This document shows positions 15,878 through 27,810 of a DNA stretch of 64,000 nt, piece by piece. How positions within the stretch are numbered: the first letter of the stretch is position 1; every line of letters begins with the position of its first letter. A model generated the notes under the pieces. It was not told the origin of the DNA. It searched no databases and was given only the letters and a program-made list of their open reading frames with translations. Made by a program: the position numbers and the translations under genes. The stretch is from an uncultured Nitrososphaeraceae archaeon (GTDB lineage Archaea; Thermoproteota; Nitrososphaeria; Nitrososphaerales; Nitrososphaeraceae). The DNA lies in contig CAVSMN010000009.1 in NCBI GenBank assembly GCA_963729045.1, forward strand, positions 170,480-234,479, given 5' to 3'.

Positions 15878-16073
15878 ATAGTATCATAAAATAATTGAAA
15901 AAGATAATATTTATAAAATCTATTAACTATATTATGGGCATATTACTATATATAAATTTTAAAAGTATATTGTAAAATAGTAAAGAATGTAGATCGAATG
16001 TTCTGATCGAAAGACATGATCGAATGGACAGCTTTTAATAAATACTTGATCTACAATGTTCTATTTGATAATA

Positions 16074-16334
16074 ATGAAATATAGAAGTAGAACAGAAATA
16101 ACTGTCTTAATACTAGAAGCAGCAAATGGTGGGGCTACAAAGACAAAAATCATGTACAAATCATTCCTTTCATACGCACAGTTAAAAGAATACTTTACAA
16201 TGCTAATTGAGAATGGTTCGCTAGAATATGAAAGTGGATTGTTAAATATCTATAGAACAACAGAAAAAGGCTTACGACTATTAAAGATATATAATCAGAT
16301 AGAAGAAATAATACCACAAGTTCATTCAAATTAG
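16074..16334 (+). CDS. Small winged-helix protein (HTH_45/DUF4364-like), copy A
   Basis: MKYRSRTEI...GATKTKIMYKSFLSYAQLKEY...YRTTEKG; start set at MKYRS by comparison with paralog 32818. Confidence 0.88.
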   Translation: MKYRSRTEITVLILEAANGGATKTKIMYKSFLSYAQLKEYFTMLIENGSLEYESGLLNIYRTTEKGLRLLKIYNQIEEIIPQVHSN

Positions 16335-16965: not shown

Positions 16966-17241
16966 TTAAAAAATGTCTTTATTAGAGGTATTTATTGTGC
17001 TTGGGATTAATTCTTCTATCTGATTATATATCTTTAATAGTCGTAAGCCTTTTTCTGTTGTTCTATACTTTTGAGTTCCATCTTCATATTCTAACAAAGC
17101 ATTCTCAATTAGCATTGTAAAGTATTCTTTTAACTGTGCGTATGAAAGGAATGATTTGTACATGATTTTTGTCTTTGTAGCCCCACCATTTGCTGCTTCT
17201 AGTATTAAGACAGTTATTTCTGTTCTACTTCTATATTTCAT
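16966..17241 (-). CDS. Small winged-helix protein, copy B
   Basis: Same sequence as copy C with a different C-terminal tail (NTSNKDIF). Confidence 0.88.
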   Translation of the reverse strand: MKYRSRTEITVLILEAANGGATKTKIMYKSFLSYAQLKEYFTMLIENALLEYEDGTQKYRTTEKGLRLLKIYNQIEELIPSTINTSNKDIF

Positions 17242-17633
17242 TATTATCAAATAGAACATTGTAGATCAAGTATTTATTAAAAGCTGTCCATTCGATCATG
17301 TCTTTCGATCAGAACATTCGATCACAACAACTGACATAATAATCTATTTCATAAAAAATATGACATTTACTAATTTCGAGTTCCTTAAGTATGTAATAGA
17401 AAATCTTAATGAATTAATGTTATTAATCTATTTAGCTATTTAGTTACGAATTTGCTGAAACCAAATTTTAGTTTATTTTACTTTGGTATAAACAAATATT
17501 CAATTAAGTTGAAATCGTTGAAATCAATATGATATATTTTAACAAGTTTGTTTTTTTCGAAAACAAGGATAAGATATGGTCTCTAGGGTTTAGATTACGA
17601 TAATTATTTAAATTACAATCAGGCAATGATCTC

Positions 17634-17984: not shown

Positions 17985-18239
17985 TTATTTTATTGTGCTT
18001 GGGATTAATTCTTCTATCTGATTATATATCTTTAATAGTCGTAAGCCTTTTTCTGTTGTTCTATACTTTTGAGTTCCATCTTCATATTCTAACAAAGCAT
18101 TCTCAATTAGCATTGTAAAGTATTCTTTTAACTGTGCGTATGAAAGGAATGATTTGTACATGATTTTTGTCTTTGTAGCCCCACCATTTGCTGCTTCTAG
18201 TATTAAGACAGTTATTTCTGTTCTACTTCTATATTTCAT
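17985..18239 (-). CDS. Small winged-helix protein, copy C (directly downstream of cdc6)
   Basis: Same motif set as copies A and B. Confidence 0.88.
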   Translation of the reverse strand: MKYRSRTEITVLILEAANGGATKTKIMYKSFLSYAQLKEYFTMLIENALLEYEDGTQKYRTTEKGLRLLKIYNQIEELIPSTIK

Positions 18240-18319
18240 TATTATCAAATAGAACATTGTTGATCAAGTATTTATTAAAAGCTGTCCATTCGATCATGTC
18301 TTTCGATCAGAACATTCGA

Positions 18320-19537
18320 TCACAACAACATAGATAAGAAATTATCATCCTTTAGTGCTTTGGATACAGTATCAGAAGAAACAGCCATTTTTATTATTTG
18401 AGAACGGCCATACCTACCATGGCTAACGACGTTTGAAGTAATTAATCCAAGTTGATCCAATTCACTAATTATTTGAGTGACTCTTCTTTGGGTCAAAGAA
18501 TCATGTTCAATCTGTTTACATAATGAAGTATAGATATCATAAACATCTCCAGTCATACCAGTTTGAGATTTCATGATAGATAGAACAATCAATTTTGTAT
18601 GTGTAGTGGAATTTTTAATGACCTCATAATTAGTGTCTTTTTCAATCTTTTCTTGTGCTTCTCGAATATGATTTTCAGTAACCATATCAGCCCTTTCTCT
18701 TTCCGCTATTTCAGCCGCTACTCTTAATAGATCAATTGCCTTTCTAGCGTCCCCATTTTCCTTCCCGGCCACTGCTGCACATAAATTAATCGCTGCCTGA
18801 CCAATAGATCCCTCATTAAATGCAAGTTTTGATCGATCATTTAGGATTTCTTTTAATTGAATTATTGTATATGGATTGAATATTATTTCCTCCTCACTTA
18901 GACTGCTTCTAACTCTTGGGTCTAGTTTGTCTTTAAATGTAAGACTATTAGATATTCCTATCAAAGATACAAACCCGTCTCCCAACATACGTTCATTTGC
19001 TCTAGTAAAGTTATATAAAACATCATCTCCATTCCTATCAACCAAGGAATCAATCTCATCTATAATTAAAACTACATGAAGATTATTTTTTTTTAAATAT
19101 TCAAGAATCCTATCAGTGGCTTCGCCCATAGACAAACCAGTAAAATGAACTTTTAATTTCCTGTCGAAGCGATTAATCCCTATATCCTCCGCAATATCAT
19201 ATAATACCTTGTATGAAGTATTTGAAGTCTTTGCGTTAATGATAGTAACGGTAATCTCTATTCCATGTTCTATTGATTTTTTTTTTAATCTAGTAATTAC
19301 ATTTTTTACAACAGCAGTTTTCCCAGTTCCAGGTTTTCCAAAAACTAAGAGATTAGAAGGTCTACCATTCTTTAATACGACTGATAATACTTGCGCGATT
19401 GTTTTAGACTCTTCGTCTCTAAATGGCAATTTTTCAGGAACATAATCGATTGTTAATGTTTTTCTATTCTTAATTAAATTAGCTCCAATAACAGCCTTAT
19501 CAAATATATTATCTAAATAATCTGAATCCATCATCAT
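18320..19537 (-). CDS. cdc6: Orc1/Cdc6 replication initiator
   Basis: YVPEKLPFR, Walker A GKPGTGKT, Walker B IIDEID, LDPRVRSSL, GDARKAIDLLR, C-terminal wH with GRYGRS. Confidence 0.96.
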   Translation of the reverse strand: MMMDSDYLDNIFDKAVIGANLIKNRKTLTIDYVPEKLPFRDEESKTIAQVLSVVLKNGRPSNLLVFGKPGTGKTAVVKNVITRLKKKSIEHGIEITVTIINAKTSNTSYKVLYDIAEDIGINRFDRKLKVHFTGLSMGEATDRILEYLKKNNLHVVLIIDEIDSLVDRNGDDVLYNFTRANERMLGDGFVSLIGISNSLTFKDKLDPRVRSSLSEEEIIFNPYTIIQLKEILNDRSKLAFNEGSIGQAAINLCAAVAGKENGDARKAIDLLRVAAEIAERERADMVTENHIREAQEKIEKDTNYEVIKNSTTHTKLIVLSIMKSQTGMTGDVYDIYTSLCKQIEHDSLTQRRVTQIISELDQLGLITSNVVSHGRYGRSQIIKMAVSSDTVSKALKDDNFLSMLL

Positions 19538-19544
19538 TTCTTTC

Positions 19545-20040
19545 CGTTAATAGTATTGATAAATCAACACAGACACACCCCTATTTTTCTATTCGAATGA
19601 TAAAAAGATAATGTCATGTTAATATGCTAACTGTTATTAACATTTAATTTTAAACAGGTTAATCAATTATTTTATACATAATAATTAAATAAATTAATAT
19701 AATTCTACTATCAAAATCAATATTAATTGCATAAGAAATAGAGGGGCCTGTGGCTTTCAAACCAAATTAACATTAATCTTAACAGTTAAAAATCATTTGA
19801 TAATAAACGTGAATTAACCCCTTTATTTCCACTGGAGGAATTCTAAATTCATTCACAACGATAATAAACGTGAATTAACCCCTTTATTTCCACTGGAACT
19901 AGAAAACCTTTAAGATGGATAATCAAATTAACTTTAGAAATATAGACATCAATAATTATGTGCTTATTTTAGTTAACAAAAACTAATCTTTTAGTTATCA
20001 ATTTTTATTCCATATTGTTAAGTTAACATATGTTATCAAA
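19545..20040. other. Chromosomal replication origin (oriC)
   Basis: AT-rich intergenic region upstream of cdc6. Two canonical ORBs (reverse complement TCCAGTGGAAATAAAGGGGT at 19817..19836 and 19878..19897, inside a 38-bp direct repeat 19799..19836/19860..19897) plus degenerate ORBs at 19577..19597 (-) and 19727..19747 (+). Confidence 0.88.
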
Positions 20041-20057
20041 TTCACAGAGACGATAAA

Positions 20058-20639
20058 TTGTCCACTGGAAAAAAGAGAATAAAAATTGAATTAGAGGATG
20101 CTGAAGGTGGAAAATATAATTTATCTCTAGAAGGCAATTTATCAAAAGACAAAATTCAAAAGGTTCTTCAATTAGTGGAATCATTGAACATCTCAAAGGA
20201 TGATTTAGATAATAATATCCAAATTCCTATGGAACAAAATAATAGTTTACAAAAGTATGACTTAGGACTCAATCAATCTAATAACTCGATTGGATCAAAG
20301 ATATGGGCATTGATCGAAAACAACTTTGCATTTAGTTCTTTTACATCTTCAAATGTAGCCGAATCCTATGAAGAATCATACGGTGAACAGTTACAACTTA
20401 GTCTCATATCCACTTATTTATCAAGATATTTTGAAAAGCAAAAATTGGTAAGGAGTAAAAGAGGGAAAGAATGGATTTATAAGTTAATTAGAATTCAAAA
20501 AGATGTTATTTCGTCCGTTGGGACACCTACTACTTCTCAATCAAGTCGTTTAATGGATTCACATTACTCGGAAGATCAGGGTGAGAATGACTTTTTGAAG
20601 CAGAATGCTTTGACAACAGTTTACGACCTTCGACTGTGA
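20058..20639 (+). CDS. Origin-adjacent hypothetical protein with probable winged-helix domain
   Basis: Small N-terminal domain, linker, then FTSSNVAESYEESYGEQLQLSLISTYLSRYFEKQKLVRSKRGKEWIYKL, a wHTH-like helix/wing pattern. Confidence 0.75.
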   Translation: MSTGKKRIKIELEDAEGGKYNLSLEGNLSKDKIQKVLQLVESLNISKDDLDNNIQIPMEQNNSLQKYDLGLNQSNNSIGSKIWALIENNFAFSSFTSSNVAESYEESYGEQLQLSLISTYLSRYFEKQKLVRSKRGKEWIYKLIRIQKDVISSVGTPTTSQSSRLMDSHYSEDQGENDFLKQNALTTVYDLRL

Positions 20640-21253
20640 TAGTATACCTGAAGGGCTTTGTGCTCATATCTCTATCAACTAATTTCTCTTCAAATAATTT
20701 TTTCATTAATCTAGAAGTGTGTTCTCTAGTCCTACCTACTACTCTTTGAACCTCCCTAGTAGTCAGAGATTTATCCTCTAATTTTTTTAGGATGTATTCT
20801 ATTGTACTATTCTGACGGTCTTCTTCCTGATCCACCGACTTGATAGAGTCTTGTGATGTTATGTCGTGATTAGGTAGTGATGTTTCAATTTTTGGATTGC
20901 TTACGTAGTTTTGGAATGGTGATATTACAGAATTCTGTGACTTGATCTTGTTGTTGAGATATTATATTTTCATCTAATAATTTTATTAAACTTTGGATAT
21001 CGGTTAATTTTTCGTTGGTCTTATTAGTTCTGTCATATAAGACTCTAAATTGTTCAGAAATGAGATTAGTCTTATTAATTTGATCCTTTATTTGACTTTC
21101 AAGCTGAGAGATTTTTGTTTCAATATTGTATTTCTTAAATTTTTTGTTTTTTAACTGCTTGTAAATTTCTAAAGCTAGAATTGATAATGCTATAGCTGAA
21201 ACAAATGGAATTAAGGTATAATTTAATATTAGTGATGCAATATCTATGCTCAC
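20530..21253 (-). CDS. Membrane-anchored coiled-coil protein with C-terminal winged helix (one frameshift at ~20943, possibly sequencing error)
   Basis: ORFs 20885..21253 (TM + coiled coil) and 20530..20835 (LTTREVQRVVGRTREHTSRLMKKL wHTH) join: the downstream frame is open through SQNSVISPFQNYVSNPKIETSLPNHDITSQDSIKSVDQEE. Confidence 0.75.
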
Positions 21254-21333
21254 ATATAATTTAGCAATACAGTGTGATATAACTTTATTGTATGTGATAA
21301 TTTGACATTTAATATTATAAACTTAGTGATATA

Positions 21334-21699
21334 TCACATATCGATTATTCTATTAATCAAATCTTCTATTACATTTATCACATTAGTTATCTCTTTATCG
21401 TGATATTTAGCGTGATTGTCTTCAAGCATTCTAAGCTTGATTAACATGGAGTTTAAGGCGGTAATTTGATCATCTTTCATTACATTTATTAGATTTAGTA
21501 GTAGGATGGAATAGAACAATTTCCGCAGTTTTGTCTTTGATTGCTTAACTTCTCTGTAATATGCGCCTGAACTTATTTCCTTCGGCCTTTTCTCTTTTTT
21601 CTTGAAATTATAAATTATTTGTATTTGTCTGTTGGTAAATAGAGATTTTTCAATTAATTTGGAAAGAAATAAATTATTTATATCTTCTTTGTTTTCCAT
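21334..21699 (-). CDS. Hypothetical protein, possible HTH
   Basis: SLFTNRQIQII...ISSGAYYREVKQSKTKLRK resembles a sigma-region-4/Tfx-like HTH. Confidence 0.65.
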   Translation of the reverse strand: MENKEDINNLFLSKLIEKSLFTNRQIQIIYNFKKKEKRPKEISSGAYYREVKQSKTKLRKLFYSILLLNLINVMKDDQITALNSMLIKLRMLEDNHAKYHDKEITNVINVIEDLINRIIDM

Positions 21700-21702
21700 C
21701 AG

Positions 21703-21720
21703 CTATACAATATTGTATAG
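21703..21720. promoter_or_regulatory. 18-bp perfect palindrome, candidate operator
   Basis: CTATACAATATTGTATAG, immediately upstream of the 21699 start codon in the divergent promoter region. Confidence 0.55.
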
Positions 21721-21793: not shown

Positions 21794-22531
21794 TTGAGTC
21801 GGGTAGAGAACTATATTAATGATGAATTGAAAAAGCATAAAAAAATATGTTTTGCTTTATTAGATTCGGAGAATTTTGAAGACATTGCTGGTGTTGCGAA
21901 AAAAGTTGAATCACTTGGTGCCTCAGCTATTTTGGTGGGAGGTTCGTCTGCCATAGATCAACTGGATTTAGACAAATTAGTAATATCAATAAAGTCTATA
22001 ATATCTATTCCTGTTATTTTATTTCCAGGAAACGTTACAGGTGTATCTCCTAATGCCGACGCGATTTTATTTACCTCATTGCTAAATTCCGAGGATCCAT
22101 ATTTTATTTCAGGAGCTCAAGCACTAGGTGCATTGTTGGTAAAAAAGTATAATATTGAACCATTGCCAACAGGATATATAATAATTGGTGATAATACTAC
22201 AGCCTGGTTTATTGGGAGAGCAAAAGGTATACCTTTTGAAAAATCTAATATCGCTGTTATGTATTCATTGGCCGCACAGTATTTGGGTATGAGGTTTGTT
22301 TACCTGGAGGCTGGATCCGGTGCAAAAAAGAATGTATCTGCGGAAATGATTTCAAATGTTAGAAAGTATTATGATGGCTTATTAATTGTTGGAGGGGGCA
22401 TTAAGAATTCCTTGATAGCTAAGGAATTAGCGGAGGCAGGGGCAGATATCTTAGTTGTAGGAACATTATTAGAGCGGGATCCGGATTGGGAAAAAAAATT
22501 TAACGACATTGTTATGGCCATTCGTTCCTGA
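21794..22531 (+). CDS. Geranylgeranylglyceryl phosphate synthase (PcrB family)
   Basis: ILVGGS, PVILFPG, SLLNS, YLEAGSGA, VGGGIK and GADILVVGT motifs. Confidence 0.93.
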   Translation: MSRVENYINDELKKHKKICFALLDSENFEDIAGVAKKVESLGASAILVGGSSAIDQLDLDKLVISIKSIISIPVILFPGNVTGVSPNADAILFTSLLNSEDPYFISGAQALGALLVKKYNIEPLPTGYIIIGDNTTAWFIGRAKGIPFEKSNIAVMYSLAAQYLGMRFVYLEAGSGAKKNVSAEMISNVRKYYDGLLIVGGGIKNSLIAKELAEAGADILVVGTLLERDPDWEKKFNDIVMAIRS

Positions 22532-22551: not shown

Positions 22552-25500
22552 ATGAATTTGATTGATGAGGCCAAAGTAAGATTAAAAAATATTTCAATTC
22601 CAAGTTACTATTTAGAGTATCAAATTGGTTTGCTGGAACAGGTAAATAAGCTTCATTTGGTAGCCGAAAAAGCAAGAAAAAAAGGTTTAGATGTTACGAC
22701 TTATGTTGAACCAAAAATTGCCTACGACTTATCTGACAGAGTTGCAAAAATGCATAATATAGATATATCAGACCGATTAAGGACATTACTAAATTATACT
22801 ACAAAAGAGAAAGCGGCTCTTAAAATAGCCGAGGAAATTGCAAAGGGGGAATATGGATCTGGAGATCTTAGGACAAGATTAGAAAATGCGGTTAGGGTAA
22901 GTTTGGCTGTGGTGACGGAAGGAGTCACTGTAGCTCCATTACAGGGTATATCTGACGTACAATTGAAAAATAATAAAGATGGTTCACAATATCTCTCCAT
23001 TTCATTTGCTGGCCCAATAAGATCTGCTGGAGGGACTGAAGCAGCACTAACTATGCTTATAGCTGATCATGTAAGGAGAGTGTCTGGACTTGCAAAGTAT
23101 CAAACAAATTCTTTTGATGATGAAACTGGCAGGTTTATAGAAGAATTAAGATTGTATGAGAGGGAAGTAGGGAACTTTCAATTTAAAGTCTTAGATAAAG
23201 ATGTCGATTTTTGCATCTCTAATTTACCAGTTGAGATCGATGGAGTAGATACAGACCCAGTTGAGTTAGTAATTCATCGGGAGATGAAGAGGATAAAAAC
23301 GGATAGAGTTAGAGGAGGAGCACTCAGGGTTATGAACGACGGTTTGATAGGTAGATGTAGAAAACTCACAAAATTGGTCGAAACACTCGAGTTAGAAGGT
23401 TGGGATTGGCTTGCAAATATGAATGGTGCAATCCAAACAGGCGATGATGATACTGTGAGTCATAGGATGTCTGAAGTAATTACAGGAAGACCCGTGTTAT
23501 CTATGAACAAGAAAATTGGTGGATTTAGGTTACGATACGGAAGGTGTTTTAATACTGGATTCGCTACGATAGGAATTCACAACACGATTCCTGTACTATT
23601 GAATTCTGCCGTAGTAGTTGGAACGCAAATTAAAATGGATGTCCCTGGAAAAGCTTCTACAATCGCCCTTGTGGACACCATTGAACCACCAATAGTAAAA
23701 TTAGATGACGGAACGGTCTTGCAGATCAATACCGTAGAACAAGCCCTAAATTTAAGATCACGAGTAGTCAAAATATTATACCTAGGAGACATTCTGATTA
23801 GTTACGGAGATTTTCTTGAGAATAATGCACAATTATTACCAGCAAGTTATGTTGAAGAAATATGGACCCAGGAATTATTTGAAAAATTGAGTCACATCAA
23901 TGAAGTCAAAAATGACTTTGTTGTTGAATATGATAAGTTAGTTAAATTGAGTTCGAATCCCTCTACAATACCCCTATTTAGAGAGGCATTGAAAATATCG
24001 ATCCAATTCGACATTCCACTACATCCTAAATATTCCTTCTACTGGGAAGCTATATCAATAAAAGATTTTTTAATAATTAGAAATGTCTTGATATCTTTTA
24101 TTTCTCTATTTAACAGAAACGGAGAGATTGAATCAACTACCGAGGAAATTAGTCTATCATATGATCATAAACTAAAAAGTATTCTAGAAAAACTAGGCGT
24201 GTTCCATCGTCTAGATACATCTAGTAATACTATAGTATTGTTAGATGGGTCTCAAATTATTGCGTTAGTGTGTTTATGTATTCCTGAATTTCAATCCATA
24301 CTCTCATTCTTATATGAAACTCGCGATAAAATCCATTTTTCAACAATTTCTAATTATATATCAAAGGATGGATTTATAGGAGATATAGGTGAAATTGTTG
24401 AAAGTTTACAGTCGGAGAAGGGTGAAGGTAAAACAACTGTCATCAAACTAATAAATTCCATTTCATCAATTAAAATACGTTCAAAATTTTCTTCTTCCAT
24501 ATCTGTTAGAGTTGGTAGACCTGAAAAAGCCTCAGAGCGTAAGATGAAACCCCCAATTCATGTTTTGTTTCCAGTAGGTAACAAAGGTGGTCCCATGAGA
24601 GACCTCCTAAAGGCTTCAAACGCAGATTCTTTTTATTCTGAAAAATCAAATCGATATTGTTATAATTGTAATATTCCATCCTTAGGTACTAACTGCAACT
24701 ATTGCAATCAAGCGACTCCTATCAAATTTATTTGCAATGTCTGTAAAGTTGAATCTCTTGATTTATCATTTGATCCTATTGATAATATAAAAAAAAGGAA
24801 CAAATGTTTAAAATGTGGTAACGAATATAAAACATTTTCTCCAATTAAGTTTCCTTTAAAGACCTTGATAGAAAAAGCCGAAACAAGGTTGAGCTTTAGG
24901 GTAACTTCTCCTTTAAAGGGAGTGAAAGCATTAATGGGGAAAGACAAGGAAGCGGAACAAATTGAGAAGGGCATTCTTAGAAAAAAATGTGGTTTATCTG
25001 TGTTTAAGGACGGTACCATAAGATTTGACGCTACGAATGAACCTCTTACTCATTTCATGCCATGTTTTATCGATACATCCATTTCAAAATTAAGAGAATT
25101 AGGGTATAAATTTGATTATCGACAGAATGAACTTGATTCTGATAGACAAATCGTAGAATTGCTGATTCAAGATGTTATAATTCCATTAGATTCTGCAAAA
25201 TATCTCTTAAAAACGGCTAAATTCATAGATGAAGAATTAGTTACCTTATATGATTTACCACCGATTTATAATGCCTATACCGAAAATGATCTGATCGGAC
25301 ATTTAATAGTGGGATTAGCTCCACATACTTCTGTCGGTATTATTGGGCGTATAATAGGTTTTACAGAATCACAAGTTTGTTTGGGTTCTCCAATATGGCA
25401 TTCCGCAAAAAGAAGAGATTGTGATGGTGATGCCGATTCAATTATCCTACTATTTGATGCATTCTTAAACTTTTCATATTCTTTCTTACCCGATAAAATA

Positions 25501-26169
25501 GGCGGATTAATGGATGCTCCATTACTAATACAACCTATTGTATTACCTCATGAGGTTCAACGACAAGCTCATAATGTTGACATTGTGGAAAAATATCCAC
25601 TAGATTTTTATAAAAATACGTGGTTGGGGGTTAAAGCAGCTGATGTTTCTGATACGATTGAAATACTAAAAAATCGAATAGGGAGTGATAAACAATTTTA
25701 TGATTATGGGTTTACCCATACTAGTAGCACTTTAATATCCAACATAAATCGAAGTGCTTATTCTACATTAAATACAATGGGCGAAAAATTAGAAATGCAA
25801 ATATCCACAGCAAATCTTATTAATTCTGTAGACACAAACGAAGTGATCTCTATGGTCTTGACGACACATATTATTCCTGATATAATGGGTAATATGCGTT
25901 CTTATTGTTCGCAGTCGTTTAGGTGCAATAAGTGCGGTGATAAGTATAGGCGAATTCCTTTGTATGGTAAATGTCTTACTTGTAATAATACTTTACTACA
26001 GACGGTTACTCGAGGTTCGGTAGAAAAATATGTTCTTTTAGCAGAAAACTTGAGTAACAGTTTTAAAGTCACTAATTATCTAAAGAGTAGAGTTGAATCA
26101 CTTATTGTGGAGCGAAATTTTGTTTTTCAATCAAAGAAAGAACAACCTACATTACTTGATTATTTATAA
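22552..26169 (+). CDS. polC: DNA polymerase D large subunit DP2
   Basis: AGPIRSAGGT, GGFRLRYGR, RVGRPEKA, FKDGTIRFD, catalytic KRRDCDGDAD and C-terminal Zn finger; no intein. Confidence 0.97.
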   Translation: MNLIDEAKVRLKNISIPSYYLEYQIGLLEQVNKLHLVAEKARKKGLDVTTYVEPKIAYDLSDRVAKMHNIDISDRLRTLLNYTTKEKAALKIAEEIAKGEYGSGDLRTRLENAVRVSLAVVTEGVTVAPLQGISDVQLKNNKDGSQYLSISFAGPIRSAGGTEAALTMLIADHVRRVSGLAKYQTNSFDDETGRFIEELRLYEREVGNFQFKVLDKDVDFCISNLPVEIDGVDTDPVELVIHREMKRIKTDRVRGGALRVMNDGLIGRCRKLTKLVETLELEGWDWLANMNGAIQTGDDDTVSHRMSEVITGRPVLSMNKKIGGFRLRYGRCFNTGFATIGIHNTIPVLLNSAVVVGTQIKMDVPGKASTIALVDTIEPPIVKLDDGTVLQINTVEQALNLRSRVVKILYLGDILISYGDFLENNAQLLPASYVEEIWTQELFEKLSHINEVKNDFVVEYDKLVKLSSNPSTIPLFREALKISIQFDIPLHPKYSFYWEAISIKDFLIIRNVLISFISLFNRNGEIESTTEEISLSYDHKLKSILEKLGVFHRLDTSSNTIVLLDGSQIIALVCLCIPEFQSILSFLYETRDKIHFSTISNYISKDGFIGDIGEIVESLQSEKGEGKTTVIKLINSISSIKIRSKFSSSISVRVGRPEKASERKMKPPIHVLFPVGNKGGPMRDLLKASNADSFYSEKSNRYCYNCNIPSLGTNCNYCNQATPIKFICNVCKVESLDLSFDPIDNIKKRNKCLKCGNEYKTFSPIKFPLKTLIEKAETRLSFRVTSPLKGVKALMGKDKEAEQIEKGILRKKCGLSVFKDGTIRFDATNEPLTHFMPCFIDTSISKLRELGYKFDYRQNELDSDRQIVELLIQDVIIPLDSAKYLLKTAKFIDEELVTLYDLPPIYNAYTENDLIGHLIVGLAPHTSVGIIGRIIGFTESQVCLGSPIWHSAKRRDCDGDADSIILLFDAFLNFSYSFLPDKIGGLMDAPLLIQPIVLPHEVQRQAHNVDIVEKYPLDFYKNTWLGVKAADVSDTIEILKNRIGSDKQFYDYGFTHTSSTLISNINRSAYSTLNTMGEKLEMQISTANLINSVDTNEVISMVLTTHIIPDIMGNMRSYCSQSFRCNKCGDKYRRIPLYGKCLTCNNTLLQTVTRGSVEKYVLLAENLSNSFKVTNYLKSRVESLIVERNFVFQSKKEQPTLLDYL

Positions 26170-26190: not shown

Positions 26191-27810
26191 TTAGTTTGCA
26201 AAATTTATTTGATATGGTCTTAAAGTGGCCAAATTAACTACAATTGCTATACCAGGGGTAGGAGTAATTCCCATAGCGCGCTGAAAGGGTGTTTGGGTTT
26301 GCCATGCGCCAGAATTCACTACCAAAGTTCCCTTATAGCTATCCACATCAATTACATGTACATGACCAGAATGGAAAATATCCGGAACGTCTTCAATAAC
26401 CATCATATCCTCTAATTCTGGAGCAATAGGTGTTCTTTGACCGTATATAGGTGAGAGATGTCTTGATTTAAGTAAAATCTTCATCGCCTCTGCTGGTTTA
26501 GAATAACTTAAACCAGGAATTGTAGCAATCGTATCGTCCAAGCTTTGACCATGAAACATTAATGTTTTTACTCCGTCCATATTGATCATGCAGGGATTTC
26601 CTAGCATAGTGATATTGCTTAAAGAGTAAATCTTATCAGCATATTTCCTTGGTATTGCTGGCTGGGGCAATGCTCGTCTTCCCAGGTCGTGATTTCCTGG
26701 AATCATAAAAACCTTAATGTGCTTAGGAATCTTCGCCAACAAATTTGTAGCATGCTCCATCTGGGAAAATGAATCCTTTTCAAATAATTCTCTGTCTTGA
26801 TGTGGAAATATCCCTATTCCATCAATTAGATCCCCACAAATACAAATATACTTTATTTTAGAAACAATATCTTTATTCTCTTCTTTTCCATTTAACCAAT
26901 TCAAAAACATTTGAAATTCATCTTCCATGAAGAATTTACTACCTATGTGCAAATCAGATATTAACACGCTATATACCTCAGAATGAGATCTGTTTGGAAT
27001 TCTGTCTGGTACATCTAATGAGAATATTTTTTTTATTATGTGGTTCTTTCTTTTTGAATTATTCTCAAGTTCTACCATTACCATTTGATCCAAAATTAAT
27101 GATGAAATCTGTTTTTTTAAATCTTCATCGTATGCAAATGCCTCTAATAATCCACTCTGATCATCAATAGTTAAATTATAACTATTCTTTTTGATCTTCT
27201 TTTCCATAATTAATCCTGCTATGAATAAAGATTCTTCCAAATTCTCCTTAGACTGTGACTTTGGATTTAACCTTGATTGGTTAAGAAATTGTTTAATGAA
27301 CGCTATTTTTTTTATTCTTTTACTGTCTGGTCTATTGGATAAAATTTTTAAGGATTTATCAAATCGGCTTCTAAACAGTGATGTATACCCTTCAACCCCT
27401 TCACCACTATTAATACTATTATTGGAATCATAAATTATGTTGTTAACATAATAGTTATTCTCCAAATCATCAGAATCGCGAGTTACCAATTCTAAAATAG
27501 TCTCTTCATTATTTTTTTTAATATCCATGATTTCCGAATGATCTAGCTTGTTAACGATAGTAGTACCATTATTAGCATTATCATTTACAATCAGTGAACT
27601 ATTTGTTGAAAACTTTAAAATACTCTTTATATCGTCGGATAAAATAACCTTAGACCCGTCTCTCTCTCTTTTGATCATAAGAATCTCTTCAACTATTTGA
27701 TACACATCTACCTGTAGATTCTCAATTAACACTAAAGCATCGGGATGAATCTGAAATCCTTTGCTGGTTATAAAGGAAATTATTTTTAAGAGATTGGAAT
27801 TATCGGTCAA
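26191..27810 (-). CDS. polB: DNA polymerase D small subunit DP1 (proofreading exonuclease)
   Basis: Calcineurin-like motifs SDLHIGS, GDLIDG, PGNHD, FHG, HSGHVH and NSGAWQTQT. Confidence 0.95.
   Translation of the reverse strand: MTDNSNLLKIISFITSKGFQIHPDALVLIENLQVDVYQIVEEILMIKRERDGSKVILSDDIKSILKFSTNSSLIVNDNANNGTTIVNKLDHSEIMDIKKNNEETILELVTRDSDDLENNYYVNNIIYDSNNSINSGEGVEGYTSLFRSRFDKSLKILSNRPDSKRIKKIAFIKQFLNQSRLNPKSQSKENLEESLFIAGLIMEKKIKKNSYNLTIDDQSGLLEAFAYDEDLKKQISSLILDQMVMVELENNSKRKNHIIKKIFSLDVPDRIPNRSHSEVYSVLISDLHIGSKFFMEDEFQMFLNWLNGKEENKDIVSKIKYICICGDLIDGIGIFPHQDRELFEKDSFSQMEHATNLLAKIPKHIKVFMIPGNHDLGRRALPQPAIPRKYADKIYSLSNITMLGNPCMINMDGVKTLMFHGQSLDDTIATIPGLSYSKPAEAMKILLKSRHLSPIYGQRTPIAPELEDMMVIEDVPDIFHSGHVHVIDVDSYKGTLVVNSGAWQTQTPFQRAMGITPTPGIAIVVNLATLRPYQINFAN

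Follow-up and report, generated by a model that had tools for sequence, protein, structure and literature searches.

A conserved trio of small genes beside an Orc1/Cdc6 replication origin of Nitrososphaeria, including a candidate reader of repeated origin hexamers

In an uncultured Nitrososphaeraceae archaeon, three small genes, here called A, B, and C, lie directly beside the initiator gene orc1/cdc6 (hereafter cdc6) and its origin of replication, oriC. The DNA analyzed, referred to as the window, is the stretch of 64,000 nucleotides at positions 170,480 to 234,479 of contig CAVSMN010000009.1 (assembly GCA_963729045.1), and coordinates are those of the window unless another sequence is named. 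The explanation favored here, which we hold with slightly more confidence than doubt, is that the three genes are an ancient origin-linked trio and not a chance assortment, in which A would be a hexamer-binding origin factor, B would be held at the membrane, and C would repress itself. The setting is a replication origin of the Orc1/Cdc6-ORB type, given that an Orc1/Cdc6 gene adjoins repeated origin recognition boxes (ORBs). An earlier note, made from the letters of the sequence alone, had already described three genes next to an ORB-containing origin, and its coordinates for A, B, and C proved correct. The core of the locus is as follows.

18320-19537, minus strand: orc1/cdc6 initiator gene (Pfam Cdc6_lid 2.3e-25, Cdc6_C 3.9e-22, AAA_22 6.9e-13), divergent from A
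19538-20057: oriC spacer between cdc6 and A, 520 bp, with ORB elements, an AT-rich stretch, and seven hexamers
20058-20639, plus strand: gene A, 193 amino acids, TTG start codon
20530-21253, minus strand: gene B, split in the window into 20885-21253 (transmembrane segment and coiled coil) and 20530-20835 (winged helix-turn-helix, wHTH)
21334-21699, minus strand: gene C, 121 amino acids, ATG start codon

The spacer between cdc6 and A holds seven copies of TGTTAA or its complement TTAACA, starting at 19617, 19637, 19767, 19779, 19973, 20016, and 20023. The host genome is AT-rich (a 2.85-Mb assembly with 33.8% G+C), and its 520-bp windows contain a mean of 0.50 such hexamers, with 0.037% of 10,918 windows reaching seven. 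In distant lineages, the corresponding spacer is dominated either by TGTTAA or by TGTGAA/TTCACA, and the hexamers are often paired 7-11 bp apart, adjoining ORBs and standing directly upstream of A. When every strand-collapsed hexamer was counted without bias across 83 cdc6-A spacers and the words were ranked by how many loci held four or more copies, TGTGAA came out on top (49/83), with TGTTAA at 26/83 and the ORB-core word TGGAAA at 23/83. At least four copies of TGTTAA or TGTGAA are present in 101 of 115 spacers, and the density of the hexamers is 10.7 per kb in spacers as against 1.5 per kb in the remainder of the same loci. Two loci are instructive in that distances of 60 and 500 kb separate the gene for A from cdc6 (L115 and L116); there the region upstream of cdc6 carries ORB-like elements together with three and six copies of TGTGAA, and hardly any are present upstream of A itself. 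Since the arrays remain with cdc6 in these genomes, they belong to the origin and not to the promoter of A. Searches of the open literature, taken apart from the primary Nitrosopumilus origin-mapping paper, turned up no description of the A, B, or C genes or of the hexamer arrays, and the portions of two reviews drawn on here mention nothing of this kind (PMC4010727; PMC7617429). The TGTTAA/TGTGAA arrays are a new observation and offer a second origin cis-element, one for which a candidate reader, A, can be named.

The case for A as that reader comes from an association between its sequence and the type of hexamer in the neighboring spacer. The hexamer follows residue X in the motif LS[X](I/V)STYL of A (L116 in the window copy) in 99 of 102 informative loci. 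A threonine at this position accompanies a TGTGAA majority in 50 of the 114 loci compared, and isoleucine, leucine, valine, alanine, or glutamate accompanies a TGTTAA majority in 49; a further 12 are ambiguous. When the columns of A were ranked without prior choice of column, the X column was the best predictor of the hexamer (mutual information 0.84 bits, 97% accuracy, n=103), and the next best were the wing residues K134 and K137. In the subset of 41 loci for which A, B, and C are all available, the A column reaches 0.996 bits and the best B and best C columns 0.71 each; the latter are high-entropy positions, and neither of the top-scoring positions of B falls within its recognition helix. 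A hydrophobic side chain facing thymine, and a threonine facing a G·C pair, would be chemically reasonable partners.

Together, these patterns suggest that A probably reads the repeated hexamer word inside the origin. A would be a sequence-specific winged-helix protein, acting most likely on TGTTAA/TGTGAA arrays that are interspersed with the Orc1/Cdc6 boxes of oriC, with the first turn of its recognition helix, at L116, reading the variable fourth base of the hexamer. With neighboring molecules seated on the two members of a hexamer pair spaced by 7-11 bp, the protein could serve as an origin accessory factor that modulates the firing of the origin, the divergently oriented promoters of cdc6 and A, or both. 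The proposal makes a residue-level prediction, namely that replacement of L116 by threonine should switch the word that A prefers.

The structure predicted for A is compatible with such a role. In an AlphaFold (AF2) model built on 14 orthologs, an N-terminal β-hairpin and helix (residues about 6-46, predicted local distance difference test score, pLDDT, about 70-76) is joined by a disordered and variable linker to a wHTH at residues ~78-143, for which pLDDT exceeds 90 over residues 80-145. The elements of this domain are helices at 78-89, 97-108, and 114-126, the last being the predicted recognition helix with L116 in its first turn, and strands at 130-135 and 138-143 that form the wing; A is accordingly predicted to contain a single wHTH, a three-helix bundle with a β-hairpin wing, in agreement with the wHTH-like character assigned to it earlier. 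The closest structural alignment obtained with VIA-align was to the DNA-binding domain of Fur (Z 11.1, root-mean-square deviation 2.0, 70 residues aligned), after which came many PadR, ArsR, and MecI-type domains, and Foldseek returned the same kinds of wHTH at E about 5e-3; neither the A nor the C model gave anything at E <=0.001 in Foldseek searches against the PDB. Membership of A in the BlaI/MecI/CopY, ArsR, or Fur families was considered and rejected, the NCBIfam model CopY_TcrY scoring 18.8 bits against a cut-off of 121.95, and A matched no Pfam family, CDT1 included, at E up to 1.

The window copies of all three proteins fall below the curated cut-off of every Pfam and NCBIfam family, and no relative of known structure emerged when profiles of A, B, and C were run against the sequences of the PDB, the matches to C being designed helical repeats. 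A and C are without a Pfam or NCBIfam family and B matches generic wHTH models only; source annotations call the proteins hypothetical or generic regulators.

A and B are convergent, and their 3' ends share 110 nt (20530-20639). The corresponding overlap spans 94-118 nt in six further genomes of the genus and no more than ~50 nt in other lineages. This part of A encodes a genus-specific disordered tail (…NALTTVYDLRL, pLDDT <50), which is the antisense reading of the conserved wing of B, so that conservation of the tail may be a by-product.

The hexamers share the spacer with elements that mark it as an origin, and conserved blocks are visible there across 13 genomes of the genus; close relatives of the present genome carry the source name Candidatus Nitrosocosmicus.

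19799-19836, plus strand: first copy of an exact 38-nt direct repeat, ending in ORB1 CCCCTTTATTTCCACTGGA (19818-19836)
19860-19897, plus strand: second copy of the exact 38-nt direct repeat, ending in ORB2 CCCCTTTATTTCCACTGGA (19879-19897)
19578-19596, plus strand: degenerate ORB-like element CCCCTATTTTTCTATTCGA near the cdc6 start, in a block kept in the 13-genome genus alignment
19727-19746, minus strand: putative inverted ORB-like element (…GAAATAGAGGGG), conserved in the genus alignment
20060-20071, plus strand: mini-ORB-like element GTCCACTGGAAA, overlapping the TTG start codon of A

Within the 2.85-Mb genome there are exactly two copies of the ORB core, and this spacer contains them both. 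Elsewhere in the genome just one site comes near the 19-nt ORB, namely GCCCTTAATGTCCACTGGA, with 3 mismatches, at G000:C12:102258, outside the window. The CCCCTATTTTTCTATTCGA element may be a further ORB, judging by its resemblance to ORB1 and ORB2, and the element at 19727-19746 appears to be ORB-like in inverted orientation. At the start of A, the GTCCAC core of GTCCACTGGAAA is present in 13/13 genus genomes and the full 12-mer in 9/13; as this stretch is also coding, either coding or ORB constraint could account for its conservation, and since other families begin A differently (MPRRR…, MARKK…), the overlap of a mini-ORB with the start codon is specific to the genus. Within the genus, Orc1/Cdc6 might occlude the start of A.

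Gene B encodes a protein of a different kind. Its intact form is a single open reading frame (ORF) of about 160-250 codons in 20/20 loci of the same order, and a single N-terminal hydrophobic 19-mer (Kyte-Doolittle >=1.96) is found in 17/17 orthologs, preceded by 1-27 residues with 0-2 lysines or arginines on the N-terminal side. In 16/17, 2-5 lysines or arginines follow within 15 residues of the anchor, the exception, L021, having a second hydrophobic stretch instead. A hydrophobic segment with a basic cytoplasmic side is what characterizes a single-pass membrane anchor, and by the positive-inside rule the wHTH would lie in the cytoplasm. With only 1-27 residues outside the membrane, B would be an anchor and not an external sensor. 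Beyond the anchor come a heptad-like coiled coil with a conserved R-L-D-x-x-E, a variable linker, and a C-terminal wHTH with an invariant R-E-H-x-x-R. At E <=0.01, this domain matches Pfam TrmB (PF01978) in 13/17 orthologs (best 2.5e-9), PF01047 in 8/17, and PF13463 in 11/17, and HVO_A0261_N is matched in 15/17; the window's wHTH piece scores 16.9 bits with TrmB (cut-off 25.6) and 20.3 bits with HTH_27 (cut-off 22.2), and the copy in locus L030 is likewise below the curated cut-offs of TrmB/MarR-type models. An ESM Atlas search with B returned solely archaeal clusters that are hypothetical or labeled MarR/TrmB. B represents a phylum-wide family of membrane-anchored winged-helix proteins, single-copy in this genome, that could insert in the membrane by the N-terminal anchor, probably dimerize through the coiled coil, and offer a TrmB/MarR-type winged helix to the cytoplasm. 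In this position it could keep DNA, perhaps that of the origin region, at the membrane. A predicted complex of A (residues 1-150) with B (35-225) scored 0.00, which is evidence neither way.

The split of B in the window is probably not a property of the organism. The window is 2 bases short relative to 7/7 close relatives, and at 20956-20957 it has one base that is absent from contigs of all 4 public sequencing runs covering B, which come from 4 studies and comprise three DNA libraries and one metatranscriptome. Being one base shorter at this site, the run contigs differ from the other species by a net 3 bases and keep the frame open, which attributes the break in the window either to misassembly or to a private mutation. 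B is thus probably intact in nature, as the transmembrane segment, coiled coil, linker, and wHTH read earlier across a repaired frameshift had implied, and its interpretation as a true pseudogene was dropped. The contigs from the RNA library (X15) do not prove transcription of B. An assembly of a different strain, in the cluster of the L030 B protein (P0274), contains a 101-residue call for the wHTH part alone, which means that a split or truncated B may exist in more than one assembly.

Protein C is modeled by AF2 as five helices with a mean pLDDT of 82.8. Residues 18-76 align with EsrB (7vim; VIA-align Z 6.8, root-mean-square deviation 3.2, 59 residues), an archaeal HTH domain (Z 6.1), and DesR (4ldz; Z 5.7), and the remainder is a C-terminal helical hairpin. 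The model hints weakly at a helix-turn-helix (HTH) of the LuxR/sigma-70 region 4 kind at the N-terminus of C, which has no Pfam, NCBIfam, or PDB sequence match. The HTH-like label that the earlier note gave to C survives in this weakened form, and of the DNA-binding folds it supposed for the three proteins those of A and B are predicted.

Each gene also stands beside a motif of its own, as had been observed earlier: hexamers upstream of A, and for B and C the following.

21703-21720: perfect 18-bp palindrome CTATACAATATTGTATAG, 3 nt upstream of the C start codon; candidate operator
21326-21337: palindrome GTGATATATCAC, upstream of B, between the C stop codon and the B promoter
21274-21293, minus strand: conserved box ATACAATAAAGTTATATCAC (given on B's strand), upstream of B

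The CTATACAATATTGTATAG palindrome is exact or has <=2 changes in 7/7 genus genomes, though its flanks diverge, and its 16-bp core is unique in the genome. GTGATATATCAC has one exact genomic copy and is present, exactly or with <=2 changes, in 5/7 genus genomes. Ahead of B, a conserved TTATATCAC box is unique in the genome; at 21274-21293, the core …ACAA.AA..TTATATCACA is kept in 7/7 genus genomes and is unique at <=3 mismatches, and this stretch is probably the TFB recognition element (BRE)/TATA region of that gene. The palindromes were also considered as a recurring centromere-like array in oriC or elsewhere, and this was rejected because each is unique in the genome. Single sites at the promoters of the genes themselves fit autoregulation and not a centromere-like array, and C, which is co-directional with B and directly upstream of it, would probably repress its own promoter through the CTATACAATATTGTATAG palindrome.

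The trio and its position are conserved well beyond the genus. A is present in 38/41 related genomes, including 28/28 of those of high quality, in 136/151 genomes of the class (a tally that includes the unpublished genome G169), and in 201/301 of the phylum, where it is missing or nearly so from families f28 (0/13), f44 (0/10), f48 (0/10), and f36 (2/20, weak). A profile search with A retrieved 4407 proteins at E <=1e-5; where named, these are mostly from Bathyarchaeia or Nitrososphaerota and are described as hypothetical or as ArsR- or BlaI-like, and an identical A ortholog also bears a Methanosuratincola label. Linkage to oriC in relatives, a point on which the earlier note had made its proposal depend, is conserved, with cdc6 lying <=1.5 kb upstream of A in 115 of the 141 loci that contain A. 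Gene order was compared more closely in 60 loci with long flanks.

Same order, 20 loci: cdc6 <=1.5 kb from A on either side in 17 (the other 3 stop at a contig or genome end), B <=300 bp from A in 18, C beside B on the same strand in 20
Other orders of the class, 20 loci: cdc6 <=1.5 kb from A in 19, B <=300 bp from A in 13, C beside B in 13
Other classes of the phylum, 20 loci: cdc6 <=1.5 kb from A in 12, B <=300 bp from A in 9, C beside B in 5

B adjoins A in 40 of the 60 loci and is convergent with it in 39 of these 40. A and B are still neighbors where cdc6 is not nearby in L054, L066, L067, and L070.

Beyond the trio, the block is bordered by genes for DNA polymerase D (PolD) and for geranylgeranylglyceryl phosphate synthase (GGGPS).

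21794-22531, plus strand: GGGPS, PcrB family (Pfam PcrB 3.1e-51), divergent from C and flanking the block
22552-26169, plus strand: PolD large subunit
26191-27810, minus strand: PolD small subunit, farther out than the large subunit

Both PolD genes thus border the origin block. In Nitrosocosmicus, the small-subunit gene sits past that for the large subunit, as here, and in most loci from outside that genus it abuts cdc6, which it adjoins (<1 kb) in 9, 15, and 11 of 20 loci at the order, class, and phylum levels, respectively. On the other side of cdc6 are three near-identical winged-helix genes encoding 90-97 residues, at 16056-16334 (plus strand), 16966-17259 (minus), and 17985-18257 (minus); the one copy scanned matches Pfam HTH_45 (9.1e-19), and the triplet is also found in six Nitrosocosmicus loci with long flanks (L025-L030). 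Several other families have, between C and GGGPS, a short ORF with a zinc ribbon (CPxCG … CGxCG) that we take to resemble an Elf1-type protein (L012:11083-11343, L014:10110-10412, L015:10049-10279, L016:10167-10415, L024:1916-2152); no zinc-ribbon ORF of >=40 residues is present in that interval of the window.

Several observations weigh against the favored explanation. The association of residue and hexamer is broken in L089, L107, and L146, the 3 discordant loci of the 114, and in L013, where cdc6 is downstream of A. It also has a shallow history: the cdc6 tree contains just 6 residue changes and 5 motif changes, and of 4 independent pairs separated by well-supported branches 2 changed the same way, 0 the opposite way, and 2 showed no difference (sign test p 0.5, significance being unreachable with the switches available). 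With about 5-6 independent switches only, the association is suggestive and not proof. Arrays and ORBs are both lacking beside the best cdc6 ortholog in two loci of family f33 (L113 and L114). Three further clusters of >=5 hexamers in 300 bp bring the number in the genome to 4, and clusters outside oriC mean that the word may serve a more general factor. The genes for PolD-small, cdc6, A, B, C, GGGPS, and PolD-large form one syntenic block, so that some of the linkage may be inertia. Finally, the palindromes of B and C are single-copy and the recognition helix of B is invariant, contrary to what a tether array would entail.

The three clusters outside oriC differ in setting. That at G000:C11:165670-165923 (L111:2671-2924) consists of seven copies of the palindromic octamer TGTTAACA beside a tRNA-Ala gene, with a split archaeal phage-integrase ORF on its other flank (PF16795, E 1.9e-5, below cut-off), and looks like the origin-type hexamer in an apparent remnant of an integrated element. 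The cluster at G000:C20:87968-88263 is intergenic, between divergent genes of unknown function, and that at G000:C11:29413-29658 is inside a coding sequence.

The same observations lend themselves to a plainer account, in which A, B, and C are ordinary local transcription factors held near oriC by synteny, the hexamers being operators of A at the cdc6 and A promoters and the trio having no role in replication or positioning. Synteny of the block from PolD-small to PolD-large across the class, hexamer pairs directly upstream of A in many lineages, single-copy palindromes at B and C of the sort that autoregulation predicts, and source labels of transcriptional regulator or hypothetical protein would all follow from it. 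However, the arrays are interleaved with ORBs and not limited to promoters, they stay with cdc6 and oriC when A is encoded elsewhere and the upstream region of A then lacks them, and the linkage of cdc6 with A outlasts the change of most other neighbors across classes. We consider this account a real but distinctly lesser possibility.

The earlier note had gone further and proposed that the genes link oriC to the membrane or regulate origin firing. A role at the origin is plausible at least for A, given that the hexamers follow its recognition helix, and that part of the proposal stands; the part concerning tethering or segregation is not demonstrated, no array of B or C sites having been found in oriC and no ParA partner nearby. 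Where the block has come apart, B and C have remained with GGGPS in one lineage (L037) and with A in others. Tethering of the origin by B is best treated as a hypothesis. Stated in full, it makes the trio, and chiefly membrane-anchored B, an archaeal counterpart of origin-anchoring systems that would physically tie oriC to the membrane or segregate it. A transmembrane anchor and a predicted cytoplasmic wHTH in 17/17 orthologs of B, and its position beside A and oriC in 40/60 loci, are what such a system would call for, and the distance of any ParA-type gene would make another mechanism necessary. The noted lack of a ParA/SegA gene in the window was upheld, as PF13614 has 0 matches on the window's contig, with 4 elsewhere in the genome. 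Against this, no cluster of candidate B sites was found in oriC, the palindromes near B and C being unique in the genome; B is away from the origin in L037, L062, and L069; and the fetched loci of L039, L041, L042, L044, L052, L055, L056, and L061 contain no B, all of which leaves the idea improbable. Similarly improbable, in our estimation, is a bolder form of the favored explanation in which A is a co-initiator or licensing partner of Nitrososphaeria and Bathyarchaeia that coats TGTKAA arrays between the ORBs, with B capturing the A-marked origin at the membrane for control of firing or segregation independently of ParA.

A regulatory role in lipid synthesis, with B as a membrane-embedded transcription factor and C as its small partner controlling the adjacent GGGPS and the nearness of oriC being incidental, finds its best argument in the arrangement of the genes: C is divergent from GGGPS across a spacer of only ~94 bp that contains the C palindrome, 19/20 order-level loci have GGGPS no more than about 2.6 kb from A, and in L037 B and C are beside GGGPS at a distance of 6 kb from A and cdc6. 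B nevertheless accompanies A in loci where no GGGPS was found (L051, L058, L060, L063, L066, L067, and L070) and in L053, where GGGPS is ~4 kb off, and a further small gene intervenes between C and GGGPS in several families, so this role, too, seems doubtful. Least probable of all is that the reader of the hexamers is Orc1/Cdc6 itself, for which they would form an extended ORB, or else some unrelated, abundant chromatin protein, and that their match with the residue in A is a phylogenetic coincidence, because even though the independent switches are few, hexamers often abut ORBs (e.g. GTGAATTAACCCC in ORB1 and ORB2), and clusters exist outside oriC, there is no fixed offset between hexamer and ORB and the best Cdc6 column carries 0.65 bits as against 0.84 for the L116 column of A.

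Ammonia-oxidizing archaea and Bathyarchaeia are globally abundant and hard to grow, and the open literature searched here reports, with regard to how they initiate replication, one Orc1/Cdc6 gene and a single mapped origin. If it were true that B holds origin DNA at the membrane, this would bear on how chromosomes are positioned and segregated in archaea without an obvious partition machine.

Among characterized systems, the favored reading of A most resembles the ucm motif of Sulfolobus and its binding protein UBP, and its logic may be compared with this pair or with IHF and Fis at bacterial oriC. ucm is a short non-ORB word in oriC that is bound by UBP and also occurs outside origins; motif and protein are needed for origin activity, and UBP, a 111-residue β-rich saddle fold that binds DNA via β-hairpins at >300 genomic sites, contacts MCM (PMC12141716). 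By analogy, the locus described here would combine a non-ORB word in oriC with a small candidate DNA binder, A, that is not an initiator. A differs in having a wHTH and an extra N-terminal domain, in a gene located at the origin, and in hexamer clusters that are rare (4 in the genome); for the UBP gene, origin linkage is not reported in the portion of the source drawn on here (PMC12141716). Since its DNA-binding domain is predicted to be a wHTH and not a β-rich saddle, A was rejected as a member of the UBP family.

A second comparison is with WhiP, the winged-helix initiator of Sulfolobus oriC3 (PMC12141716). Like A, WhiP is a winged-helix protein encoded beside an origin, and this is the origin on which WhiP acts; unlike A, which co-occurs with Orc1/Cdc6 and ORBs, it serves an origin without ORBs. 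WhiP has two winged-helix domains related to Cdt1, and a WhiP/Cdt1-like initiator was set aside as an identity for A, which has one predicted wHTH with a β-hairpin-helix domain and no match to Pfam CDT1 at E up to 1.

For C, the likeness to LuxR/FixJ proteins and sigma-70 region 4 is that residues 18-76 align to EsrB and DesR; it differs from LuxR-type domains in that all Z scores are <8, no sequence match exists, and a loop of 10-25 residues precedes the putative recognition helix.

B invites comparison with several groups. Its C-terminal domain matches the wHTH models of TrmB and MarR, classical members of which are soluble dimers, whereas B adds a membrane anchor and a coiled coil. ToxR, CadC, and TcpP are single-pass membrane proteins with a cytoplasmic N-terminal wHTH of the OmpR type, followed by a transmembrane segment and then a periplasmic sensor. 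B would resemble them as a single-pass protein with a cytoplasmic winged helix that brings DNA to the membrane, but a ToxR-like regulator was rejected because the order is reversed (transmembrane segment, coiled coil, wHTH) and there is essentially no external domain. RacA with ram and ParB with parS are DNA binders that act on origin-near sites, and it is this idea that the locus shares with anchoring and partition systems. These also include SegAB, a partition system with SegA (PMC7617429). The present locus departs from them in that B would itself be the membrane component and no site array attributable to B was found; an assignment to ParABS or SegAB, in which a gene for a ParA/SegA Walker ATPase adjoins that for the DNA binder, was discarded because the window contains no ParA/SegA gene. 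The trio would belong to kinds already known, those of accessory DNA binders at origins and of winged-helix regulators bound to the membrane.

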